From Alphaproteobacteria bacterium (GTDB lineage: Bacteria > Pseudomonadota > Alphaproteobacteria > GCA-2731375), in the NCBI GenBank assembly GCA_965232515.1, contig CBDDPY010000002.1, positions 2,592,001 to 2,656,000 of the forward strand: a DNA stretch of 64,000 nt. The letters are read 5' to 3'. The notes under the pieces were generated by a model. The model had not been told where the DNA came from. It searched no databases and worked only from the letters and a program-made list of their open reading frames with translations. The translations under genes were made by a program, and so were the position numbers. Below are positions 37,544 through 46,270 of this stretch, one piece after another; position 1 is the first letter of the stretch; every line of letters begins with the position of its first letter.

Positions 37544-39160
37544 ATGCAGGGCCGACAGGAACAGCAGGACGCGCGACAGGACGGGCCGGCCGACGAACGC
37601 TACCGGATCGTTATCGAGCCGCTGGCCGGCCGCGTGCAGGGCGTCTACGCGGGCGCGATGCTCGCCGACACGACGGACGCCAAGATCCTGCACGAGACCA
37701 ATTTGCCCTCGGTGATCTTCGTGCCGCGCGCCGACGTGGCGATGGACCACCTGCAGCGGATCGAGCTGCAGACCTTCTGTCCCTTCAAGGGCAACGCCAC
37801 GCACTGGCGGCTGACGCTCGGCGAGCGGACCGTGGAGCCCGCGGCCTGGAGCTACGAAACGCCGCTCGCCGAGGCCGACCCCATCGCCGGCCATATCGCC
37901 TTCTACCCGCAGGCGATCGAGCAATGGACGCGGGACGGCGAAACGCTGCACGCGATGACGCCGCTCCGGACCGAGCGGCATCCGCTGACCGACTGGCTGC
38001 TGCTGTCGGCGGGCGACGCCGCCTCGCCGGAAGAGCTCACTGAGCAGCTCGGCAGGAAGCTCATCGCCGCGGGCGTGCCGCTGTGGCGGATCAGCGTCGC
38101 GATCTGGACCCTGCACCCGCAGCTCGCCGGCACCACCTACAACTGGCGCAGCGACCGCGAAGGCGTGGCGCAGATCTACACGCCGCACGGGGCGCTGCAG
38201 AGCCCAGCCTATCTCAACAGCCCGGTCAAGTTCGTGACCGACGGCCTGGGCGGCGTGCGCCAGCGCCTCGATACCGGCGAACCGCGCTATCCGTTCCCGG
38301 TGATGAACGACCTCAAGGCCGAGGGCGCCACGGACTACGTGGCCATGCCGCTGCCGTTCTCGGACGGCAGCATCCATTCCATGACGCTGACCTCGCGCGA
38401 CGCGGACGGCTTCTCGACCGCGGACCTCGGCATGGTGTTCGAGAACTCCGTGGTGATCAGCCGGCTCTACGAGGTGCATACGCTCAGGGCCAACACGGCC
38501 GTGCTGCTGAACACGTATCTGGGCAAACGCACGGGCGCGCGGGTGCGCGAGGGCCAGACCCGGCGCGGCGACGGCGAGCGCTTGAAGGCAGTGATCTTCA
38601 TGGCCGACCTGCGCGGCTCGACCGCGCTCGCCGAGCGCCTGAGCCGCGAGGATTACCTCGACGTCTTGAGCGGCTTCTTCGATTGCACGGCGACGCCGGT
38701 CACGGAACGCGGCGGCGAGGTGCTGAAGCTGATCGGCGACGCGGTGCTGGCGATCTTCCCGCTCCCCGACGCGATCGACGATGCGGCGGCCGAGGCGGCG
38801 GCGGCCGCGGTCTGCCGCCGGGCGCACACGGCGGCGCGCGACAGCCTGCGGCGGATCGAGCAAGCGAACCGGACCGGCGGTCTGGCTGCCGAGATCCGCT
38901 GCGCCGTGGCGCTGCATCTGGGCGAGCTGACCTACGGCAATGTCGGCTCGCAGGACCGGCTGGATTTCACCATCGTCGGCACGGCGGTGAACGAGACCGC
39001 GCGGCTCGACGCGGTGGCGAAGAAGCTCGACGAGCCCGCTGTTTATTCGGGCGACGTGGGCCGGCACCTGGGCGACGCCGCCCGCTCCCTCGGCAACCAC
39101 GCGCTGCCCGGCGTCGGCCGCGAGATCGAAATCTTCGTGCCGGTGGAGGCGGCAGGATAA
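37544..39160 (+). CDS. DUF427 domain fused to class III adenylate cyclase
   Basis: TFCPFKG.A, AAWSYETP (DUF427); FMADLRGST, LKLIGD, FTIVGTAVNETARL. Confidence 0.88.
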   Translation: MQGRQEQQDARQDGPADERYRIVIEPLAGRVQGVYAGAMLADTTDAKILHETNLPSVIFVPRADVAMDHLQRIELQTFCPFKGNATHWRLTLGERTVEPAAWSYETPLAEADPIAGHIAFYPQAIEQWTRDGETLHAMTPLRTERHPLTDWLLLSAGDAASPEELTEQLGRKLIAAGVPLWRISVAIWTLHPQLAGTTYNWRSDREGVAQIYTPHGALQSPAYLNSPVKFVTDGLGGVRQRLDTGEPRYPFPVMNDLKAEGATDYVAMPLPFSDGSIHSMTLTSRDADGFSTADLGMVFENSVVISRLYEVHTLRANTAVLLNTYLGKRTGARVREGQTRRGDGERLKAVIFMADLRGSTALAERLSREDYLDVLSGFFDCTATPVTERGGEVLKLIGDAVLAIFPLPDAIDDAAAEAAAAAVCRRAHTAARDSLRRIEQANRTGGLAAEIRCAVALHLGELTYGNVGSQDRLDFTIVGTAVNETARLDAVAKKLDEPAVYSGDVGRHLGDAARSLGNHALPGVGREIEIFVPVEAAG

Positions 39161-39176
39161 CCAACCAAAAGGGGCT

Positions 39177-39280
39177 AACCACAGAGTTCACAGAGGACAC
39201 AGAGAACCAAAAAGCTGGTTGGCGCGAAGCGCCGAAAAAACGAGTTTGTTCCTCTGTGTGCTCTGTGCCCTCTGTGGTGA
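39177..39280 (+). repeat. REP/MITE-like palindromic element, copy 1 (9-bp periodic arms)
   Basis: (CACAGAG-NN)x3 arm, central GGCGC-GAA-GCGCC, (CTCTGTG-NN)x3 arm. Confidence 0.85.
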
Positions 39281-39861: not shown

Positions 39862-39966
39862 TCACCACAGAGGGCACAGAGCACACAGAGGAACAAACCT
39901 GTTGGTTCGGCGCTTCGCGCCAACAAACGTTTTGGTTCTCTGTGTCCTCTGTGAACTCTGTGGTTA
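39862..39966 (-). repeat. REP/MITE-like palindromic element, copy 2 (inverted relative to copy 1)
   Basis: Near reverse complement of 39177-39280, core GGCGCTTCGCGCC. Confidence 0.85.
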
Positions 39967-40011
39967 AACCATCTTGTTTGTTTGACATTGCGATTGTGAC
40001 GGGAGGTGGGG

Positions 40012-40899
40012 ATGGCAGACGTGATCAATATCGAGTTCACGCGGTTCTCGGCCTTTTACAGTCCGCTGATCGCGACCATCGCCGGCGGGTTCCTGGAGGA
40101 CGAGGGCCTGACGCCCAAGCACGCGGTGTCGGCGCCGGGGCGCACGGCGATTGCCTCGTTGCAGGCCGGCACGGCGCATGTGGTGCAGTCGGCGCTGAGC
40201 CAGGGCTTCGGGCCGCTGGAGCGTGGCGAGACGCCGCCGGCGGTGCATTTCGCCCAGATCAACGAGCGCGACGGGTTCTTCCTCACGGCCCGCGCCCCCG
40301 ACCCGGATTTCGGCTGGGCGAAGCTCGCCGGCAAGCGCGTGCTGGTCGACCACGGCGGCCAGCCGCTCGCCATGTTCAAATACGCCTGCCACAAGCAGGG
40401 CCTGGACTTCGGCAGCATCACGGCTGTCGACGCCGGCAGCACACCTGAGATGATCGAAGCGTTCCGTAACGGCGACGGCGACTACATCCACCTCCAGGGC
40501 CCGGCCCCGCAGCAGCTCGAACACGACAAATCAGGCCACGTCGTGGCCTCGGTCGGCGCGGCCATCGGCCCCGTCGCCTTCTCCAGCCTCGCCGCCACCC
40601 GGGACTGGCTCCAGACCGACATGGCCGCCGCCTTCATGCGCGCCTACCGCAAGGCCCGCGCCTGGCTGATCGAAACGCCGGCCGCCGAGGTCGCCCGCGC
40701 CGAAGCGTCATTCTTCCCCGACATCGACAGCGACGTTCTCACTGCCACCCTCGCCTTCTACCAAACCCTCGGCTGCTGGTCCCCCCACGTCGAGATCAGC
40801 CCCGAGGCCTACGCCGTCACGGTCGACGTGTTCATGCATGCCGGCCTGATCACGCGGCGGCATTCCTACGAGGCGATTGTGGCGACGCCGCCGGGGTAG
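40012..40899 (+). CDS. NMT1/THI5-like ABC substrate-binding protein
   Basis: FYSPLIA....GFLEDEGL, FAQINERDGFFL; no permease or ATPase nearby. Confidence 0.75.
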   Translation: MADVINIEFTRFSAFYSPLIATIAGGFLEDEGLTPKHAVSAPGRTAIASLQAGTAHVVQSALSQGFGPLERGETPPAVHFAQINERDGFFLTARAPDPDFGWAKLAGKRVLVDHGGQPLAMFKYACHKQGLDFGSITAVDAGSTPEMIEAFRNGDGDYIHLQGPAPQQLEHDKSGHVVASVGAAIGPVAFSSLAATRDWLQTDMAAAFMRAYRKARAWLIETPAAEVARAEASFFPDIDSDVLTATLAFYQTLGCWSPHVEISPEAYAVTVDVFMHAGLITRRHSYEAIVATPPG

Positions 40900-41061
40900 A
40901 TGGTGATCGTCATTGAGGTCCAATTTCCACCTCACTTAGGTCGATGAACTTGCAAATGAAATTTTTTGGTTAGGTTTGTTCGTTGTTTGTTCTTTCAACG
41001 AATTTGCCCTACAATCGCCGGGTTGGCATATGGTGTGTGGCAACTCTCATAGGTTTGTGAG

Positions 41062-41772
41062 ATGTCGATGAAATCGCCAAAGGCACGGCTGCTTTCGCTA
41101 TACGACTTGTTCCCGTTTCATCTGCATCCGATGTGGTTGGCGGTGGAACGCAAAGAGCTATCGTTAGAGGAAGTCCTTGCGGCAGAGACCCAACATTGGA
41201 TTCGCACACGCGCAGGTCAAAGACTTCGGAAAGAAGCGCTCGATGTCGCAAGCGGCACGAGCGAACTAATTTTCGAGTTTCTTCTTAAGACCTATCTCGA
41301 AGAGTGCACGGAAGACAGCACAGGGCCAAGCCATCTAGACCTCATCGAAAGGCTCTTGATCACCGGCGGCCTGTCCATGAAGCAGCTTGAGGAGACATGG
41401 CCGACGCCCGGAAACTCAGCCGCAATCGCCTTGTATAGTGATATTGGTTCACGGGGTGCGGGGTGTCACATGCTAGGCGCCGGGGCGGTCGAACATTTCT
41501 ATTCCAAACTGAGTCCGCAGATATTTGACGCTTACACAAACCACTACGGTATGTCAGCGGAACAGGCAGAAACCTACAAAATCCATGGATCATTGGATGC
41601 AGTGCATGCTGATCGCGCGTTCGCAATTTTAGAGGAAGCAATCGAACTTCACGGCTGGACACTGATCGAGACAAGTGTTCGGGATGCTTTCGTTGCAACT
41701 AGCTTGCACTACGACGGCATGCTGCAAGCGGCCACGGGTCAAATTTCATACTGGGACGGAGCAAATAGATGA
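41062..41772 (+). CDS. heme-oxygenase-like diiron oxidase (CADD/PqqC/TenA fold)
   Basis: HPMW N-terminus; E81, H91, E144, H175, D179, H182 parallel the CADD diiron ligand set. Confidence 0.8.
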   Translation: MSMKSPKARLLSLYDLFPFHLHPMWLAVERKELSLEEVLAAETQHWIRTRAGQRLRKEALDVASGTSELIFEFLLKTYLEECTEDSTGPSHLDLIERLLITGGLSMKQLEETWPTPGNSAAIALYSDIGSRGAGCHMLGAGAVEHFYSKLSPQIFDAYTNHYGMSAEQAETYKIHGSLDAVHADRAFAILEEAIELHGWTLIETSVRDAFVATSLHYDGMLQAATGQISYWDGANR

Positions 41773-42338
41773 GCAGTTTCATCTACACTCTTTTCGGGAA
41801 GGCAGACCCCGGCCATGGGTGGATACTGAACGATCCGATTTTTGAAGGTCCTGCACCGACACTTGGAGCATGCGTCCCAAACATCCGCAGTTCCGTAACT
41901 GTCGGCGATTGGGTTTTCGCGGTTAGCGGCCGCGTCGCTAATGAACGTCAATTCGTGATTGGCGGATTTCGCGTCGCAGAAAAGATCGATCAACTCGCCG
42001 CTTATCATCGATTTCCGGAGTATCGACTCTCCCACTCGCCTAATGGTCAACTCATCGGCAACGTAATAGTCAACAGCGACGGATCTCAGCATTCTGCCGA
42101 TACTCACCAGAATTTTCAGCGTCGGATTCAGAACTATTTGGTCGGAGACGAGGCTGTGTTTCTAAGTCGAGCAAGCGAATACGAAACTGCTCGTGCGGAA
42201 ACAATTGCGGTTCTGTCAAAGATCATTGGAAAATCTGGCAACCGCGTGTTCGACCTAATCGGACGTCAAAAGAAACTTACCCAAGATCAAACTGCTAGTG
42301 TGCTTGATTGGCTTCTCAGTGTCCAAGCAAGAGGTTGA
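41769..42338 (+). CDS. Nmad2-like (nucleotide modification-associated) protein
   Basis: DP.....PTLGACVPNIRSSVTVGDWVFAVSG motif, later GN..V and H..D. Confidence 0.65.
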   Translation: MSSFIYTLFGKADPGHGWILNDPIFEGPAPTLGACVPNIRSSVTVGDWVFAVSGRVANERQFVIGGFRVAEKIDQLAAYHRFPEYRLSHSPNGQLIGNVIVNSDGSQHSADTHQNFQRRIQNYLVGDEAVFLSRASEYETARAETIAVLSKIIGKSGNRVFDLIGRQKKLTQDQTASVLDWLLSVQARG

Positions 42339-42341
42339 GTT

Positions 42342-43463
42342 ATGGACAGACTTCGGGAAGTAATTAGCGAAAGCCGAATTGATAGACATAGACTTAGTGA
42401 AAAATCCGGCATCAGTGCCGAACGTCTTGCAGCATTGGAAAATGGTCAGACGCCGACCATGTCGGAACTTCGCTCGATTGCGCAAACCCTCGGATTGCAT
42501 GTCGGTGATTTTCGGTCGCCAACGGGCCGTGAGGCCGAGACAGAACTTCTTTTCCGAAGGGCACGAATAGGAGGAAGTTCCGTCGACGATGTGGTGCGGT
42601 CGAAGCTGTCTCGCAGAATAGCCGATCCACTTTCGCTCATGACGTTTGAGGCATCGAGTGCTCTGCGCTGGCATGGCCAATTCAATCGTGGTCCGGATAC
42701 GGCAGAGACGAACGCCCACAAGTTCCGCGCGCTATTCTGTAACAATGATCAACTGAGCCCCCTGCTTTCTCTTCCACGAATTGTGGAAGAGGAGATGGGC
42801 GTAGTTCTTCTGGTGATCCGCAACAGTGAGATCGATGGAGCGTCCGGTTATCTGGATGGTGTCCCGTTTGTACTTTTGTCGGCTCGGTTCACTCCTCGGA
42901 TGCTTTTCACGTTGGCGCACGAAGTTGGACACCTCATCGCACATCATAATCCGCGGTCGTCAGTCGCTGTGATTGATCAGGACGTCCAATCGAGTGTTGG
43001 TAGAGGCGAAGAGGTTGCCTTTGAGCGGGAAGCAAATGCATTTGCCTCGATCTTGCTCATGCCAGCACAAGCCATCGGACTAGCTCTGAAGACAATCCGC
43101 AAAGTAAGGGGAATCACCGATGAGGAGCTCGGTGATCTTGAGATCAATTACCTGGCTCGCATCTTTGGCGTCAGCTTCTGGGCAGCTGCAATACGATGCG
43201 AACACCTAGGACTGCTGCCTTCCGGCGGCGGTTCAGCCCTTCACAAGGAGCTGACCGACCGCTACGGAAGCCCTGAAAAACGGTCGGATCAGGCAGGCCT
43301 TCCACCTCGGCCTGAAGTTCGATTTCCGTCGGTCCCGACATCACTACTGCGTTCGGCAGTAGATCGGATAAGGGCTGGCGAAGTTTCAATCGGCAGGGCC
43401 GCAGAAGCTCTTGAAATGTCGATTCCCGAAATCATGGCGATTCATGCCAGCCAAAACACGTGA
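42342..43463 (+). CDS. XRE-HTH + ImmA/IrrE (peptidase M78) metallopeptidase with C-terminal HTH
   Basis: N-terminal HTH (LSEKSGISAERLAALENG), FTLAHEVGH, EREANAFASILLMP, FGVS, GEVSIGRAAEAL. Confidence 0.88.
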   Translation: MDRLREVISESRIDRHRLSEKSGISAERLAALENGQTPTMSELRSIAQTLGLHVGDFRSPTGREAETELLFRRARIGGSSVDDVVRSKLSRRIADPLSLMTFEASSALRWHGQFNRGPDTAETNAHKFRALFCNNDQLSPLLSLPRIVEEEMGVVLLVIRNSEIDGASGYLDGVPFVLLSARFTPRMLFTLAHEVGHLIAHHNPRSSVAVIDQDVQSSVGRGEEVAFEREANAFASILLMPAQAIGLALKTIRKVRGITDEELGDLEINYLARIFGVSFWAAAIRCEHLGLLPSGGGSALHKELTDRYGSPEKRSDQAGLPPRPEVRFPSVPTSLLRSAVDRIRAGEVSIGRAAEALEMSIPEIMAIHASQNT

Positions 43464-43960
43464 ACTATATATTTGACGCGAGTTGCCTCTTTAATCTTGC
43501 TCATGGCGAGGTATTCGACACCATTCTTGAGCTAGAGGTATTGTCAGCTCAAGTTGGGCCTATTGTTGTAAGCGAATGCGCATCAATAAAGAGCGTTGTC
43601 GACACAGCCATAAGCGCCGGGCAGATTGAGCTTCTTGATGATAGCGCGGTGAACGCAGATCTCTTTATTTCGCTTCTCGACACGTACAATCTTGGCCCTG
43701 GTGAAACGGAATGCATAGCGTTTGCAAAATCGACTACCGCCATGATCTGTATGGACGACGGTAAGGCGCGAAAAGCTGCAACGCACGAGATTGGCGCGGA
43801 CCGTGTCACCGGATCATTAGGCTTGCTGCGCATAGCCACCGAAGCAGAACAAATCTCTGTCGAAGATGCGTTTGGCGCTTATTCAAAGATGATCGCTGAG
43901 GGAGCTTTTCTACCTGTCTTTAGCAAAAATACTTTCGTTTCAGATGTATTAGAAAAATGA
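43460..43960 (+). CDS. PIN-domain protein (DUF3368-like)
   Basis: YIFDAS, VVSE, LGPGETECIA, MDDGKARK, TGSLGLL. Confidence 0.82.
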   Translation: MNYIFDASCLFNLAHGEVFDTILELEVLSAQVGPIVVSECASIKSVVDTAISAGQIELLDDSAVNADLFISLLDTYNLGPGETECIAFAKSTTAMICMDDGKARKAATHEIGADRVTGSLGLLRIATEAEQISVEDAFGAYSKMIAEGAFLPVFSKNTFVSDVLEK

Positions 43961-44124
43961 TTCTTCCAAAATTTTCTGAGTTCGACTCAATACCCGAGCC
44001 AACCGTCGAAACTTTTCCAGACCGCTGAAAAAGACACACTTTCTTATGGGTAGATGATCAAAGAGCGGGGCAATGGCCATTGGAACCACGACTTCGATGA
44101 TCAGCAATATGTTGCGGCAAACAA

Positions 44125-44892
44125 ATGAACAAACAGACATCGCTTGAGACCAATCCAATAGCCGCTGCAAGAATTGAGCAGGTTGAACGTGAACTGCGGG
44201 CCTTTGCGGAAAAGCCTATTTCATTCACATTCAATCCATCCGGAACCACCCTATTTTCGATAATGGAACTTAGGCAAAGCTATGCAAAACGATGTGTGGA
44301 CCTTGCGGACACAATTCGCTCGCTCGTAAGCCAAAGCCGCATAGTGCCTGCTACTGTGATTGGTCGTGCGCTTATCGAGACGGTTGCGATGGGATGTCTT
44401 TATTTACACGAAATGAGGCGACTAATTGATGCCGGAGATCTTGAGCGTTTGGAAGCAAGACATACCCGATTCTATGCAGGAATTAGAGGTAAGTCCGTTG
44501 AACCGGTGCACGTGATGGATGCAATGCGACATCTCGAAAAGATCGACGGAAACTACGTCGCCTACTTGGACCAGAAGTTTGGTGTATTCACCCTCGCGAT
44601 AGAAAAGCTGAAGGCTACTGGGCAGGATCTAGACGTCAACGATGTACGTGAACTGTTATCAACTATGAAGAATTACAATGATCTCTCTGAAATCTCGCAT
44701 CCAAACGGACTTGGCACTCAATTTCTTTATCCAGATTCCAGCAACGAAAACGATGCCGTCGCAATGGTGCGGGTGCGATACCGTGTGACGTCCCTCAGTT
44801 CAATTTGGCAATGCCACCACCTGGTAAGGGCGCTGGGCGAAAGCGAAGATCTGCCTGAGCGTTACAAGGCGACATTCATGGCGAGCGATTAG
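44125..44892 (+). CDS. hypothetical helical protein, DUF5677/HEPN-like
   Basis: GRALIE and YNDLSEISHPN motifs. Confidence 0.55.
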   Translation: MNKQTSLETNPIAAARIEQVERELRAFAEKPISFTFNPSGTTLFSIMELRQSYAKRCVDLADTIRSLVSQSRIVPATVIGRALIETVAMGCLYLHEMRRLIDAGDLERLEARHTRFYAGIRGKSVEPVHVMDAMRHLEKIDGNYVAYLDQKFGVFTLAIEKLKATGQDLDVNDVRELLSTMKNYNDLSEISHPNGLGTQFLYPDSSNENDAVAMVRVRYRVTSLSSIWQCHHLVRALGESEDLPERYKATFMASD

Positions 44893-45099
44893 TTGCGACG
44901 AAACAGACTCTTTGATCAGGTCATATGCTGGCCGTTGAGTAACTAATTGCTGTCGGCCCGCAGCGGCCGGTAGATTTCGGGGCGACTGCAAGACGATCAA
45001 AAGGCGTCCCAATACCAAGTGAAACTAGGTCGGTGCGCACCCACGTCACCGCGCGCCGAACACGTCTAACGAGCAGTCGATCAGAACGGCGGACGAATT

Positions 45100-46122
45100 T
45101 CAAGATCGCGTCGCGCGATGGCCTCCAAACGGCTCCGACTTCAACCACTCAACCGTCTCCCGCAGAAACGTCGGGATGTCGCGCAAGGGCACGTTGAAGC
45201 TGTTGCGGCGGGTGAAGTCGAAGCCGGTGGGGGTGACGGGCGGCTCGGTGAGGGGGGCGGGCATGGCCATGTCGGGGAGGATCTTTTTGAGCTCGGCGTA
45301 GATGTCTTGCCAGTGCCAGCTGTCGTAGACGCCGTAGTAGCGGCCGGACGCGGCCTCGTTTTCGTAGGCCGCTAAAAATAGCGCGGCGAGGTCGTGGAGG
45401 TGGATCATCGAGGTCGAGTCGTTGGGGACCGTCGCGTGCCGCGGCGGGCCGCCGGCGATGAGGGACCGCAGCCATTTGTGCGGGTTGTGCTCGAGATGTC
45501 CCGGCAGGATGACAGGGCCGAACATGCCGGTCGGCAACAGGATGCAGAGGCGCATGTCGTGCTCGGCGGCAAACGCGATGGCGGCCTTTTCCATCACGGT
45601 CTTGGTGGCTGACGTGTATTTCTTGGCCCGGCATTGTTCGGCTTCGTCGGACCAGTGGTCGACCTCGTTCTTGACCGGCACGGGCGGCACCGGGTTGGTG
45701 CTGCTGGTGCTGCTGCAGATGATGGCGGTCTTGACGCCCTGGCGGGCGGCGGCGCGCAGGATGTTGAGGCAGCCGTTGACGGTCGGCATGATGATCTCGG
45801 CATAGCCCTGTTCGTCGTCCATCTCGCGGGCGGGCTTGCCCGAGGGGCCGGCATAGGTGGGAATGAGGCTGGCGATGAAGACGGCGTCGGCGCCGGTGAG
45901 CGGGGCGTCGAAGCTATTTTCGTGGGCCATGTCGGCGCTGTGGAGCGTCAGCCGCTCGGCGGCGCCGGGCAGCGCCATCAGGTAGGGCGCCTTGTCCGCC
46001 GCGTTCGCATCGCGCAGCGTGCCGCGCACGGTGTAGCCGCGGTCGAGCGCGGCTTTGACGATGTTCGAGCCGACAAGGCCGCTGGCGCCAACGATGCAGA
46101 GGGTTTTGTCCGTTTTGGTCAT
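45100..46122 (-). CDS. NAD-dependent epimerase/dehydratase (aldehyde reductase-like)
   Basis: VGASGLVGS, YTSATK. Confidence 0.88.
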   Translation of the reverse strand: MTKTDKTLCIVGASGLVGSNIVKAALDRGYTVRGTLRDANAADKAPYLMALPGAAERLTLHSADMAHENSFDAPLTGADAVFIASLIPTYAGPSGKPAREMDDEQGYAEIIMPTVNGCLNILRAAARQGVKTAIICSSTSSTNPVPPVPVKNEVDHWSDEAEQCRAKKYTSATKTVMEKAAIAFAAEHDMRLCILLPTGMFGPVILPGHLEHNPHKWLRSLIAGGPPRHATVPNDSTSMIHLHDLAALFLAAYENEAASGRYYGVYDSWHWQDIYAELKKILPDMAMPAPLTEPPVTPTGFDFTRRNSFNVPLRDIPTFLRETVEWLKSEPFGGHRATRS

Positions 46123-46167: not shown

Positions 46168-46270
46168 TTCACCACAAAGACACGAAGACACAAAGAACCA
46201 AAAGAAGTTGATTGGCGCGAAGCGCCGATAAACAGGTTTGTTCTTTGCGTCTTTGCGCCTTCGTGGTGAA
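46168..46270 (+). repeat. REP/MITE-like palindromic element, copy 3 (variant arms)
   Basis: TTCACCAC...GTGGTGAA ends, 9-bp periodic arms, same TTGGCGCGAAGCGCCGA core. Confidence 0.8.

Follow-up and report, generated by a model that had tools for sequence, protein, structure and literature searches.

A probably horizontally spread four-gene cassette joining a divergent Nmad2 protein and an exchangeable putative diiron oxidase to a predicted protease-regulated PIN toxin-antitoxin pair

What would bring a putative diiron oxidase and a relative of the Nmad2 family into one operon with a metallopeptidase-containing regulator and a PIN-fold protein? The question is raised by an islet of low guanine-plus-cytosine (GC) content in a stretch of 64,000 nucleotides from an alphaproteobacterial genome (assembly GCA_965232515.1, contig CBDDPY010000002.1, positions 2,592,001 to 2,656,000; hereafter referred to as the window). 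The genes are designated A to D in the order of transcription, and a fifth open reading frame (ORF) that follows on the same strand is designated E (Table 1). A reading of the letters and translations, referred to below as the original prediction, had proposed that these ORFs form a new defence or nucleotide-modification module in which oxidative chemistry or the sensing of modified bases is wired to a protease-controlled ribonuclease (RNase) toxin. The five ORFs were found at the predicted coordinates and with the predicted junctions: A and B overlap by ATGA at 41769-41772, a gap of 3 nt (42339-42341) separates B from the ATG of C at 42342, and C and D overlap by GTGA at 43460-43463. The GTG start of D is supported by 24 homologues whose N-termini align with its own. 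The foreign composition of the islet was likewise confirmed, with GC values of 0.46-0.54 from about 40750 to 45000 compared to 0.62-0.73 on either side (about 0.68 in the flanks and the genome).

To place the four genes in a wider context, a profile of B was used to scan one genome per species, and the neighbours were called by tblastn. The scan gave 28 loci in hosts from the Alpha-, Beta- and Gammaproteobacteria, Acidobacteriota, Bacteroidota, Saccharimonadales, Dormiibacterota and other groups. C was located directly after B in all 28 loci and D after C in 26 of them; in the other two, L022 and L031, the contigs end about 220-240 nt past C, and in L011 the contig has room for the first 48 residues of D only. 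A preceded B in 20 loci and was absent from eight. An independent, A-seeded scan of metagenome contigs yielded 80 loci, in which B followed A in 66 of 66 cases with at least 300 nt of room, C was present in 55 of 55 with at least 1000 nt, and D in 42 of 42 with at least 2000 nt. The patterns used for the A scan were specific to the subfamily, and the linkage to B, C and D therefore holds for this subfamily of A and not for all heme-oxygenase-like diiron oxidase (HDO) enzymes. In the 18 loci that carry all four genes, a set that excludes L011 (partial D) and L023 (a near-duplicate of L021), the identity matrices of A, B, C and D correlated pairwise with r values of 0.69-0.85, and none of 500 label permutations reached the observed correlation for B-C, A-B or C-D. 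In pairwise comparison, the A proteins of this set were on average 55% identical and the B proteins 54%, with lower means of 40% for C and 36% for D. The same gene order in 28 genome and 80 metagenome loci, together with the joint divergence of the genes, rules out a chance adjacency of unrelated genes. Thus, the oxidase and Nmad2-like genes co-occur with the ImmA-PIN pair across phyla, and the lack of co-occurrence on which the original prediction would have foundered was not found. The cassette is rare: in a sample of 401 genomes of the phylum, only the genome of the window itself (G000) was found to contain A. The B family comprised 228 proteins at E<=1e-3 among 306 candidates, with a length of about 186 aa and 50-73% identity among the 120 listed, and a search of 1.84 billion sequences with the B profile returned only 190 representatives at E<=1e-3, of which 40 also passed E<=1e-30.

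The products of C and D resemble a toxin-antitoxin (TA) pair. According to Pfam, C consists of an Xre-type helix-turn-helix (HTH) domain at residues 3-57 (HTH_26/HTH_3, about 1e-7) and a Peptidase_M78 domain at residues 151-286 (4.7e-13). Among the PADLOC models it matched 16 RmrA models (best 1.3e-18, over residues 13-250), capP (1.8e-16) and also capH, in agreement with the HTH-metallopeptidase assigned by the original prediction. The HExxH motif (H193, E194, H197) is invariant in 27 sequences, as are E228, E312, G346 and S349. In 19 of 27 homologues, the last 35 or so residues of C resemble, in the same register, the core of UPF0175 (PF03683; E 1.4e-4 to 0.22), which we treat as a lead only. 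The assignment of D as a PIN-fold protein also held. D matched six PDC-S70 models of PADLOC (best 1.5e-11), and nine of 25 members of its family matched Pfam DUF3368 (best 4.9e-6). With the structure model of D (predicted local distance difference test, pLDDT, 97), Foldseek returned almost exclusively PIN domains in its top rows (PAE2754, VapC, Nob1 and HARP-type RNase P), with template-modelling (TM) scores of 0.45-0.68 (0.55-0.68 for PAE2754, VapC and Nob1). Five acidic residues, D6, E82, E84, D99 and D100, are invariant in 25 sequences. From the modelled fold and these residues, D is a putative nuclease of the COG2405/DUF3368 type. The two proteins were then modelled as a complex. Three runs gave ipSAE scores of 0.89, 0.90 and 0.90, compared to 0.30 for the best of three controls, with a partner pLDDT of 93 and at least 95% of contacts common to the runs. 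The mark applied to such scores, which 58 of 80 solved complexes and 2 of 110 mismatched pairs attained, is only a rough guide here as our own alignments were used, and the pass may reflect likeness to a similar solved complex, should one exist. In the model, residues 343-372 of C, including the invariant G346 and S349, and parts of its HTH domain (3-4, 37-44 and 53-59) contact residues 7-8, 11, 77-84, 100-105 and 145-150 of D, which is the surface bearing the five invariant acidic residues. The predicted interface supports a role of C as an antitoxin that caps the acidic active pocket of D, and thus the earlier idea of a protease-controlled toxin. As far as the available text of Matelska et al. 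2017 (PMC5499597) goes, HTH-DUF955-PIN operons have been predicted to be TA systems, and UPF0175 occurs only together with COG2405. As a separate observation, the C homologue on a short Bacteroidia contig (L031:2282-3400) contains an in-frame stop, representing either a broken copy or a sequencing error.

B had been described as Nmad2-like, and this description was borne out by both sequence and structure searches. It matches Pfam Nmad2 (PF18753) with an E value of 7.6e-8 and 32.5 bits (cut-off 26.1), and many of its homologues are annotated as PF18753. In the genome scan, B reached only 31.8 bits on the Nmad2 model versus 71-223 bits for canonical members. The structure model of B (pLDDT 96) matched McrB-N bound to 5-methylcytosine (m5C) DNA, the EVE domain of THYN1, and ASCH proteins by Foldseek, with probabilities of 0.95-0.99 for McrB-N, THYN1 and MJECL36. 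VIA-align retrieved the YTH domain of Mmi1 (Z 9.4), PH1033 (8.5), ASCH (8.1) and the modification-dependent endonuclease VcaM4I (7.2). All top 18 rows, with Z scores of 6.0-9.4 (values of 8-9 being moderately above the background stated for the tool) and 121-146 aligned residues, were YTH, EVE, ASCH, McrB-N or VcaM4I structures or structural-genomics proteins grouped with them. An ASCH-type N4-acetylcytidine (ac4C) amidohydrolase gave a lower Z of 3.0. An alignment of 30 sequences contains 36 invariant columns, with C35, K72, D111 and H113 among the invariant residues, as well as conserved aromatic and basic residues, and the family is basic, with a median isoelectric point of 8.8. Taken together, B is a divergent Nmad2 protein on a distant branch, with the predicted PUA-like fold of modified-base readers.

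A natural fusion joins domains corresponding to B and C in one polypeptide. In P0202 (581 aa), a B-like domain at 377-561 (E 1.6e-54) is preceded by HTH_3 (16-66) and Peptidase_M78 (250-342). The peptidase region of P0202 can be aligned to C with 29% identity (E 4e-10), and its cluster contains a second member of 584 aa from another source. The order of peptidase followed by B reverses the gene order of the cassette, so that the fusion is not the result of read-through of neighbouring genes. The B fusions were missed by a word-index search of longer proteins and recovered by an exhaustive profile search. In another protein, P0199 (339 aa), a weak tautomerase-like stretch is joined to a B-like domain. 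The Nmad domains were reportedly defined in predicted nucleotide-modification operons by Iyer and co-workers in 2013. We scanned five neighbourhoods of canonical Nmad2 genes. Nmad3 adjoins Nmad2 in two of these, one of which also places it beside AbiEii and DUF6088; in one, the gene is located beside TIR_2, SLOG and a relaxase, and in one near a ParA-like ATPase and SIR2_2. Thus, three of the five contain AbiEii, TIR plus SLOG, or SIR2 genes. Compared to canonical Nmad2, B passes the Pfam cut-off but belongs to a distant branch, occurs without Nmad3 and is paired with C and D.

The oxidase assignment of A is based on a match to Pfam Haem_oxygenas_2 (E 9.1e-9, 35.8 bits, cut-off 28.9). A profile search against the PDB gave the 4-aminobenzoate synthase CT610/CADD as the best match (E 5e-4), followed by a protein named PqqC and by TenA; TenA-type relatives appear among the weak matches. 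H175, D179 and H182 of A align onto the H..D..H residues of CT610, which we take to be the iron ligands of CADD. These three residues and H136 are invariant in 20 sequences, and E42, H45, E80, E81, H91 and E144 are nearly so. The residues singled out by the original prediction were therefore all conserved, namely H175 and D179 of A (20 sequences), the HExxH motif of C (27) and D6 of D (25). A shares the Haem_oxygenas_2 match and the invariant H-x3-D-x2-H with CADD/CT610, PqqC, TenA and other HDO enzymes, but differs from them by low sequence similarity, by a unique invariant C-terminal motif, DAFVATSLHYDGM, and by its partners, which are a TA pair and not a biosynthetic cluster. We classify A as a putative, CADD-like diiron oxidase.

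Seven of the eight loci without A share a protein of about 360 aa, X360, that is not homologous to A. In L025 and L027, the gene immediately precedes the cassette and is co-oriented with it, and in L030, L032, L033, L034 and L036 it is found downstream in convergent orientation. The order X360-B-C-D also occurs on a plasmid of Azospirillum argentinense (NZ_CP032324.1), where RefSeq names C an 'ImmA/IrrE family metallo-endopeptidase' and X360, B and D 'hypothetical'. X360 consists of an internally duplicated module, in which a CxxC..H..H..CxxC zinc ribbon comes after a beta-rich part containing YPGG..WGS..GVHVH. Pfam, the PADLOC flank scan, a PDB profile search and the Atlas assigned it to no family and returned zinc-ribbon-like stretches only. 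In two Bacteroidota loci, a dATP/dGTP diphosphohydrolase-N gene (PF18909) is located between D and X360. Since the first position can be held by either the oxidase or the zinc-ribbon protein, B, C and D constitute the core and A is exchangeable. Oxidative chemistry, which the original prediction had named as one of two possible inputs, is therefore not essential to the core.

A GTTC-N7-GTTC direct repeat of the SOS/LexA type precedes A in the window (Table 1); as far as the available text of PMC8565304 goes, this is the LexA motif of Alphaproteobacteria. The box had escaped the original prediction, and it points to DNA damage as a transcriptional input. We analysed 73 unique regions of 160 nt upstream of A, using 200 shuffles as control. 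The strict motif occurred in nine of the 73 regions (shuffles: mean 0.34, maximum 3) and the relaxed motif TTC-N7-RTTC in 37 (shuffles: mean 2.6, maximum 8). Two classes of boxes were distinguished. Class 1, the strict motif with a T-rich spacer, was found in the window, in loci of Rhizobium and of a Methylocella metagenome-assembled genome, and in six metagenome loci. In G000, strict boxes precede the longest ORF of recA by 121 nt, lexA by about 50-60 nt, one Y-family polymerase gene by 86 nt and another IMS-family frame by 645 nt. Class 2 has the sequence TTCGCYTTTTRTTC, often followed by TAG, and occurs in either orientation 15-71 nt before the start in about 26 regions. The genomes of L015, L017, L018, L021 and L023 contain 2, 6, 6, 2 and 7 exact copies, respectively, compared to well below one exact copy per genome by chance, as we estimate from a reversed-pattern control that gave 9-13 matches per genome at up to one mismatch. 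Among 29 ORFs scanned beside 22 of the 23 exact sites were the A gene of the cassette (in all five genomes), recA (one), DinB/DinB_2-family genes (three), splB-like radical-SAM genes (three) and Lhr-like DEAD/Helicase_C/HRQ1-WH helicase genes (two). Other sites lie beside unrelated or unnamed genes, namely two response regulators, ParB, PD40, DUF5666, a phosphoesterase and several without a family. From this distribution, TTCGCYTTTTRTTC is probably the SOS box of a small regulon in Acidobacteriota-type and Dormiibacterota genomes (G431-G435; loci L135-L163). As boxes of both classes are common to the cassette and to recA or repair-type genes, the operator is, judged by its motif, one that the DNA-damage regulon of the host also uses in two or more widely differing groups of hosts, and is most likely a LexA box. 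A scan for promoter and terminator consensus sequences gave nothing above shuffled controls and no site upstream of A; the candidate promoter listed in Table 1 scores 8/12 at a threshold of 9/12.

The surroundings of the cassette were examined in the window's genus and at the other loci. In a genome of the same genus, G001, the left flank matches as far as window position 40899, and on the right the similarity begins again at about 45125-45155. Between the matching flanks, G001 carries a different low-GC cargo (L009:3337-10027; G001:C418), which encodes a STAND-type NTPase of 1363 aa (nSTAND3, E 1.1e-6), a DUF4143/AAA_14 protein with a PADLOC match to PDC-S01 (1.1e-78) and a MerR-type HTH gene. 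The same flanks with different cargo identify the site of the islet as a variable hotspot. G001 also contains a partial extra copy of the right-flank gene at C418:23920-24505. PADLOC was applied to 141 of 155 flanking ORFs of 27 loci, leaving out the near-duplicate L023, with a cut-off of E<=1e-5. Matches were obtained at nine of the 27 loci, and four of these were strong: in L029, the cassette is located between hsdM/hsdS and hsdR of a type I restriction-modification (R-M) system; L021 is flanked by REase_I (7e-228) and SoFic (2.8e-46), L036 by BovA of Borvo (6.4e-130) and L013 by a PD-T4-6-type kinase.

The in silico evidence, namely conserved gene order, joint divergence, folds, conserved residues of catalytic type, the interface predicted between C and D and a common operator motif, is best explained by a horizontally spread, DNA-damage-induced, Rosmer-like TA or defence module with two new input genes. 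On balance we favour this explanation, with some reserve. From it we infer the toxicity of D, proteolysis or self-cleavage by C, binding and control by LexA, and the roles of A and B. Self-cleavage of C is proposed by analogy with ImmA and IrrE and with a proposal in the available text of PMC5499597. In such a module, LexA would hold the operon at a low level until DNA damage, or damage induced by a phage, leads to derepression. C would keep D blocked, with its tail and HTH domain placed over the acidic active pocket. The input would most likely enter through B, which would recognise a base or nucleotide that is modified or damaged and signal to the protease C, and A would probably make or alter what B recognises. 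After derepression, C might cleave itself or lose its tail, and the freed D might then cut RNA and stop growth. A more specific version of the switch, in which A or its zinc-ribbon substitute makes or converts an altered, for example oxidised, base or nucleotide, B reads it and docks on C, and C cuts itself and releases the PIN RNase, is offered tentatively and appears doubtful to us as a whole.

Several observations weigh against the favoured module. Concerning its parts, the fusion of a B-like domain to a protease is confined to a single cluster. All UPF0175 matches are below threshold, with at most 21.9 bits at a Pfam cut-off of 27.9, and the tail of the window's own C gives no UPF0175 match. 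The window's own D has no Pfam match, DUF3368 included, and its best Foldseek E value is 1.2e-3, with none <=0.001. In the table for COG2405 in the available text of PMC5499597, the family is given 2-5 conserved acidic residues, marked '+/-', and its activity is therefore not assured. The higher conservation of A and B compared to C and D fits housekeeping-like enzymes as well as sensors. Concerning the operator, 36 of the 73 upstream regions lack a box even by the relaxed pattern. Of nine SOS-type genes checked in G000, four have a strict box and five do not; no strict box was found for uvrA, two ssb genes, the third IMS gene and the second LexA-like gene. The strict motif is common in G000, with 183 sites compared to 151 expected from base composition, so that a lone site is weak evidence and the recurrence carries the argument; in some hosts, the box could instead be the operator of C itself. 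Concerning mobility and defence, one plasmid record among 72,556 holds a relative of B, and no relative was found on viral contigs in three scans with the B, D and A profiles, an absence that is weak evidence as these scans were pattern-based. In 18 of the 27 loci, the flanking ORFs gave no PADLOC match at E<=1e-5. The defence neighbourhood expected by the original prediction is thus seen at some loci (L029, L021 and L036) and is missing from most.

The main rival is an operon for base-damage repair or nucleotide sanitation within the SOS regulon, which we regard as rather unlikely. A would act as an oxidase on damaged bases or nucleotides, such as alkylated ones, performing the task of AlkB with another fold, B would recognise the lesion, C would be a damage-responsive regulator of the operon, and D would serve as an accessory RNase or as the addiction partner of C. 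Such an operon would account for a box common to recA, DinB-family, splB-like radical-SAM and Lhr-like helicase genes, for a fold of B that is found in methyl-base readers and also in the ac4C amidohydrolase (Z 3.0), for A and B being the most conserved of the four genes, and for the dATP/dGTP diphosphohydrolase-N gene adjoining the cassette in two A-less loci; the TenA-type relatives among the weak matches of A also speak for it. A repair enzyme would not be expected, however, in strict linkage with a PIN-plus-antitoxin pair, nor in a cassette that is rare, patchy across phyla, carried on islets of foreign composition and in one case inserted into an R-M operon. A is, in addition, dispensable to the unit, and we know of no heme-oxygenase-like diiron enzyme that acts on nucleic acids. 

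Less probable still is a self/non-self modification system in which A and B introduce or preserve a modified base in the DNA or RNA of the host, while C and D addict the cell to the mark or attack unmodified invaders. The name of the Nmad2 family, the pairing with Nmad3 in two of the five canonical neighbourhoods, the PUA-like fold of B and the position of the L029 cassette inside a type I R-M operon argue for a modification system. It is opposed by the absence from the cassette of any transferase, glycosylase or other base-exchange enzyme, by the low score of B on the Nmad2 model relative to canonical members and the lack of Nmad3, and by the replacement of the oxidase by a non-homologous zinc-ribbon protein in seven of the eight A-less loci and in the plasmid copy; SOS control would also be odd for a constitutive self-mark. 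SOS control is typical of prophages, and C has the HTH plus ImmA/IrrE architecture of the ImmR/ImmA-like repressor/anti-repressor switches of prophages and integrative and conjugative elements. The cassette on its low-GC islet at a variable site might be the regulatory switch left over from a mobile element, with A, B and D as cargo. This we consider very improbable: the flanking ORFs scanned gave no integrase-like Pfam match (PADLOC is not built for integrases, and the Pfam scan covered part of the flanks), no tRNA is present in the window, and a repeat search of 40400-45600 found short repeats only, none of them placed on both sides of the islet in the manner of a target-site duplication. 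The viral-contig scans likewise offer no relative, and the four genes travel self-contained in very different surroundings. 

The DNA-damage-induced TA or defence module, which we continue to favour, overlaps in part with systems that have been described. The C-D half is already known, judged by its domains, as a member of the predicted HTH-DUF955-PIN class with a RosmerTA-like antitoxin architecture. In the available text of Matelska et al. 2017 (PMC5499597), three-component TA operons of HTH, DUF955 (COG2856, ImmA/IrrE) and a PIN-like protein (COG2405/DUF4411) are predicted. C corresponds to these as an HTH-DUF955 fusion with the HExxH motif kept, and a COG2405/DUF3368-type PIN gene, D, lies directly downstream and co-oriented in our loci (26/28 genome and 42/42 metagenome loci). 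The signal that triggers the protease in these operons is described there as unknown. The cassette differs from this system in the strict upstream linkage of a diiron oxidase and an Nmad2/PUA-like gene, in a UPF0175-like tail predicted to cap the PIN protein and in the SOS-type operator, although Supplementary Figure S6C of that paper may show variants. With RosmerTA (RmrT/RmrA; PMC10440598), C shares the architecture of an HTH plus ImmA-type peptidase antitoxin and the RmrA matches, and in the available text of that paper an ImmA node pairs with PIN-like domains. RosmerTA is an anti-phage pair of a toxin and an antitoxin with a protease domain, whereas the present unit has four genes, and neither its toxin family nor its accessory genes belong to the validated ones, so far as that text goes.

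Pairs of UPF0175 (COG2886) and COG2405 (DUF3368) have a PIN family in which D is placed through the DUF3368 matches of nine of its 25 relatives, and the UPF0175-like tail of C is predicted to contact D; here, the antitoxin motif is fused to the protease-regulator and does not stand alone, with all matches below cut-off. CapH/CapP of the cyclic oligonucleotide-based antiphage signalling system (CBASS) is a DNA-damage-responsive repressor/protease pair. Like ImmR/ImmA and DdrO/IrrE, and as far as the available sources go, it has the same coupling of an M78 peptidase with an Xre-type HTH and the same link to DNA damage, which is seen here via the operator. In the cassette, HTH and peptidase are one polypeptide, the output would be a bound PIN protein in addition to transcription, and the connection with damage consists in a common operator motif instead of demonstrated activation of the protease. 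D also matches the PADLOC models of PDC-S70, a candidate PIN nuclease according to the available text of PMC12988326; that candidate is unvalidated, mostly archaeal and made up of one gene, while the PIN gene here is the last of a fixed four-gene operon. The available text on DefensePredictor (PMC13092281) mentions 'NMAD' domains, the Nmad family not being specified, for two systems, of which one is validated and the other predicted, and an Asgard virus preprint deals with Nmad1 only. No description of the four-gene combination was found in the literature that was searched, although the supplements and figures of PMC13092281 and PMC5499597 might show a similar operon. The claim of a new system therefore stood for the combination and not for the C-D half, which the available texts of PMC5499597 and PMC10440598 anticipate. 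Apparently new, in that we found no description of them, are the strict coupling to the Nmad2/PUA-like B and an exchangeable diiron oxidase, the UPF0175-like tail on the protease and the SOS-type operator.

Protease-containing antitoxins of the Rosmer and HTH-DUF955-PIN types are widespread, and their trigger is, according to PMC5499597, unknown. The cassette offers two co-inherited candidate inputs, with folds that suggest the recognition of modified bases or chemistry on them, and a damage operator, and with them a concrete, testable route from a signal to the release of a toxin. For the oxidase and the uncharacterised Nmad2 family, it further provides a context in which simple effects on growth or on phages could help to identify their substrates. 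With a length of 2.9 kb, self-contained organisation and clear catalytic residues, it would be easy to clone and mutate. If the oxidase-B-protease switch is true, it would fill in the upstream signal that is missing for the entire HTH-DUF955-PIN and Rosmer-type class, and would be the first described role of a heme-oxygenase-like diiron enzyme in TA or immune signalling.

Table 1. Location of the cassette, its control sequences and associated features (window positions unless a locus is named)
Feature	Position	Strand	Description
GTTC-N7-GTTC direct repeat, GTTCGTTGTTTGTTC	40978..40992	+	SOS/LexA-type box, 84 nt before the ATG of A
Candidate promoter, TTGTTC-17 nt-TACAAT	40987..41015	+	Inferred by eye, -35 inside the box
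Gene A	41062-41772	+	236 aa; heme-oxygenase-like (CADD/PqqC/TenA-type) putative diiron oxidase
Gene B	41769-42338	+	189 aa; divergent Nmad2 protein, predicted PUA-like (YTH/EVE/ASCH) fold
Gene C	42342-43463	+	373 aa; Xre-type HTH, M78 (ImmA/IrrE, DUF955) zinc peptidase and UPF0175-like C-terminal tail; predicted antitoxin/regulator
Gene D	43460-43960	+	166 aa, GTG start; PIN-fold, COG2405/DUF3368-type putative nuclease toxin
Gene E	44125-44892	+	255 aa; DUF5677-family passenger on the islet, outside the cassette
Low-GC islet	40900..45125	.	Variable hotspot between two conserved host genes; from GC and same-genus comparison
X360	L025:4884-5963, L027:1586-2668, L030:9509-10591, L032:5073-6155, L036:9226-10323, L033:2794-3993, L131:5892-7004		Zinc-ribbon protein of about 360 aa
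PF18909 gene	L030:9160-9504, L034:6394-6750		dATP/dGTP diphosphohydrolase-N; E 3.6e-33 and 1.4e-30, respectively
Canonical Nmad2 loci	L126, L128, L129, L130		Other genomes of the phylum

The fifth ORF, E, had been counted as a member of the module. It was found beside the cassette in none of the 28 genome loci and in none of the 23 metagenome loci with room for it (at least 3200 nt). E has a weak Pfam match to DUF5677 (E 0.014) and belongs to a stand-alone family of 76 homologues of about 255 aa, many of which carry PF18928 (DUF5677); in the Atlas, only hypothetical or DUF5677 clusters were matched. Nothing in the analysis supports the earlier 'HEPN-like' label, the matches being to DUF5677 only. 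E is a real gene of its own family and a passenger outside the conserved unit.

Outside the islet, a pair of inverted repeats of 122 nt (39159-39280 and 39862-39983) with 89% complementarity encloses about 580 nt just to the left of the gene flanking the islet. A partial third copy is located to the right of the islet at 46202-46232, and the sequence looks like a dispersed repeat element.

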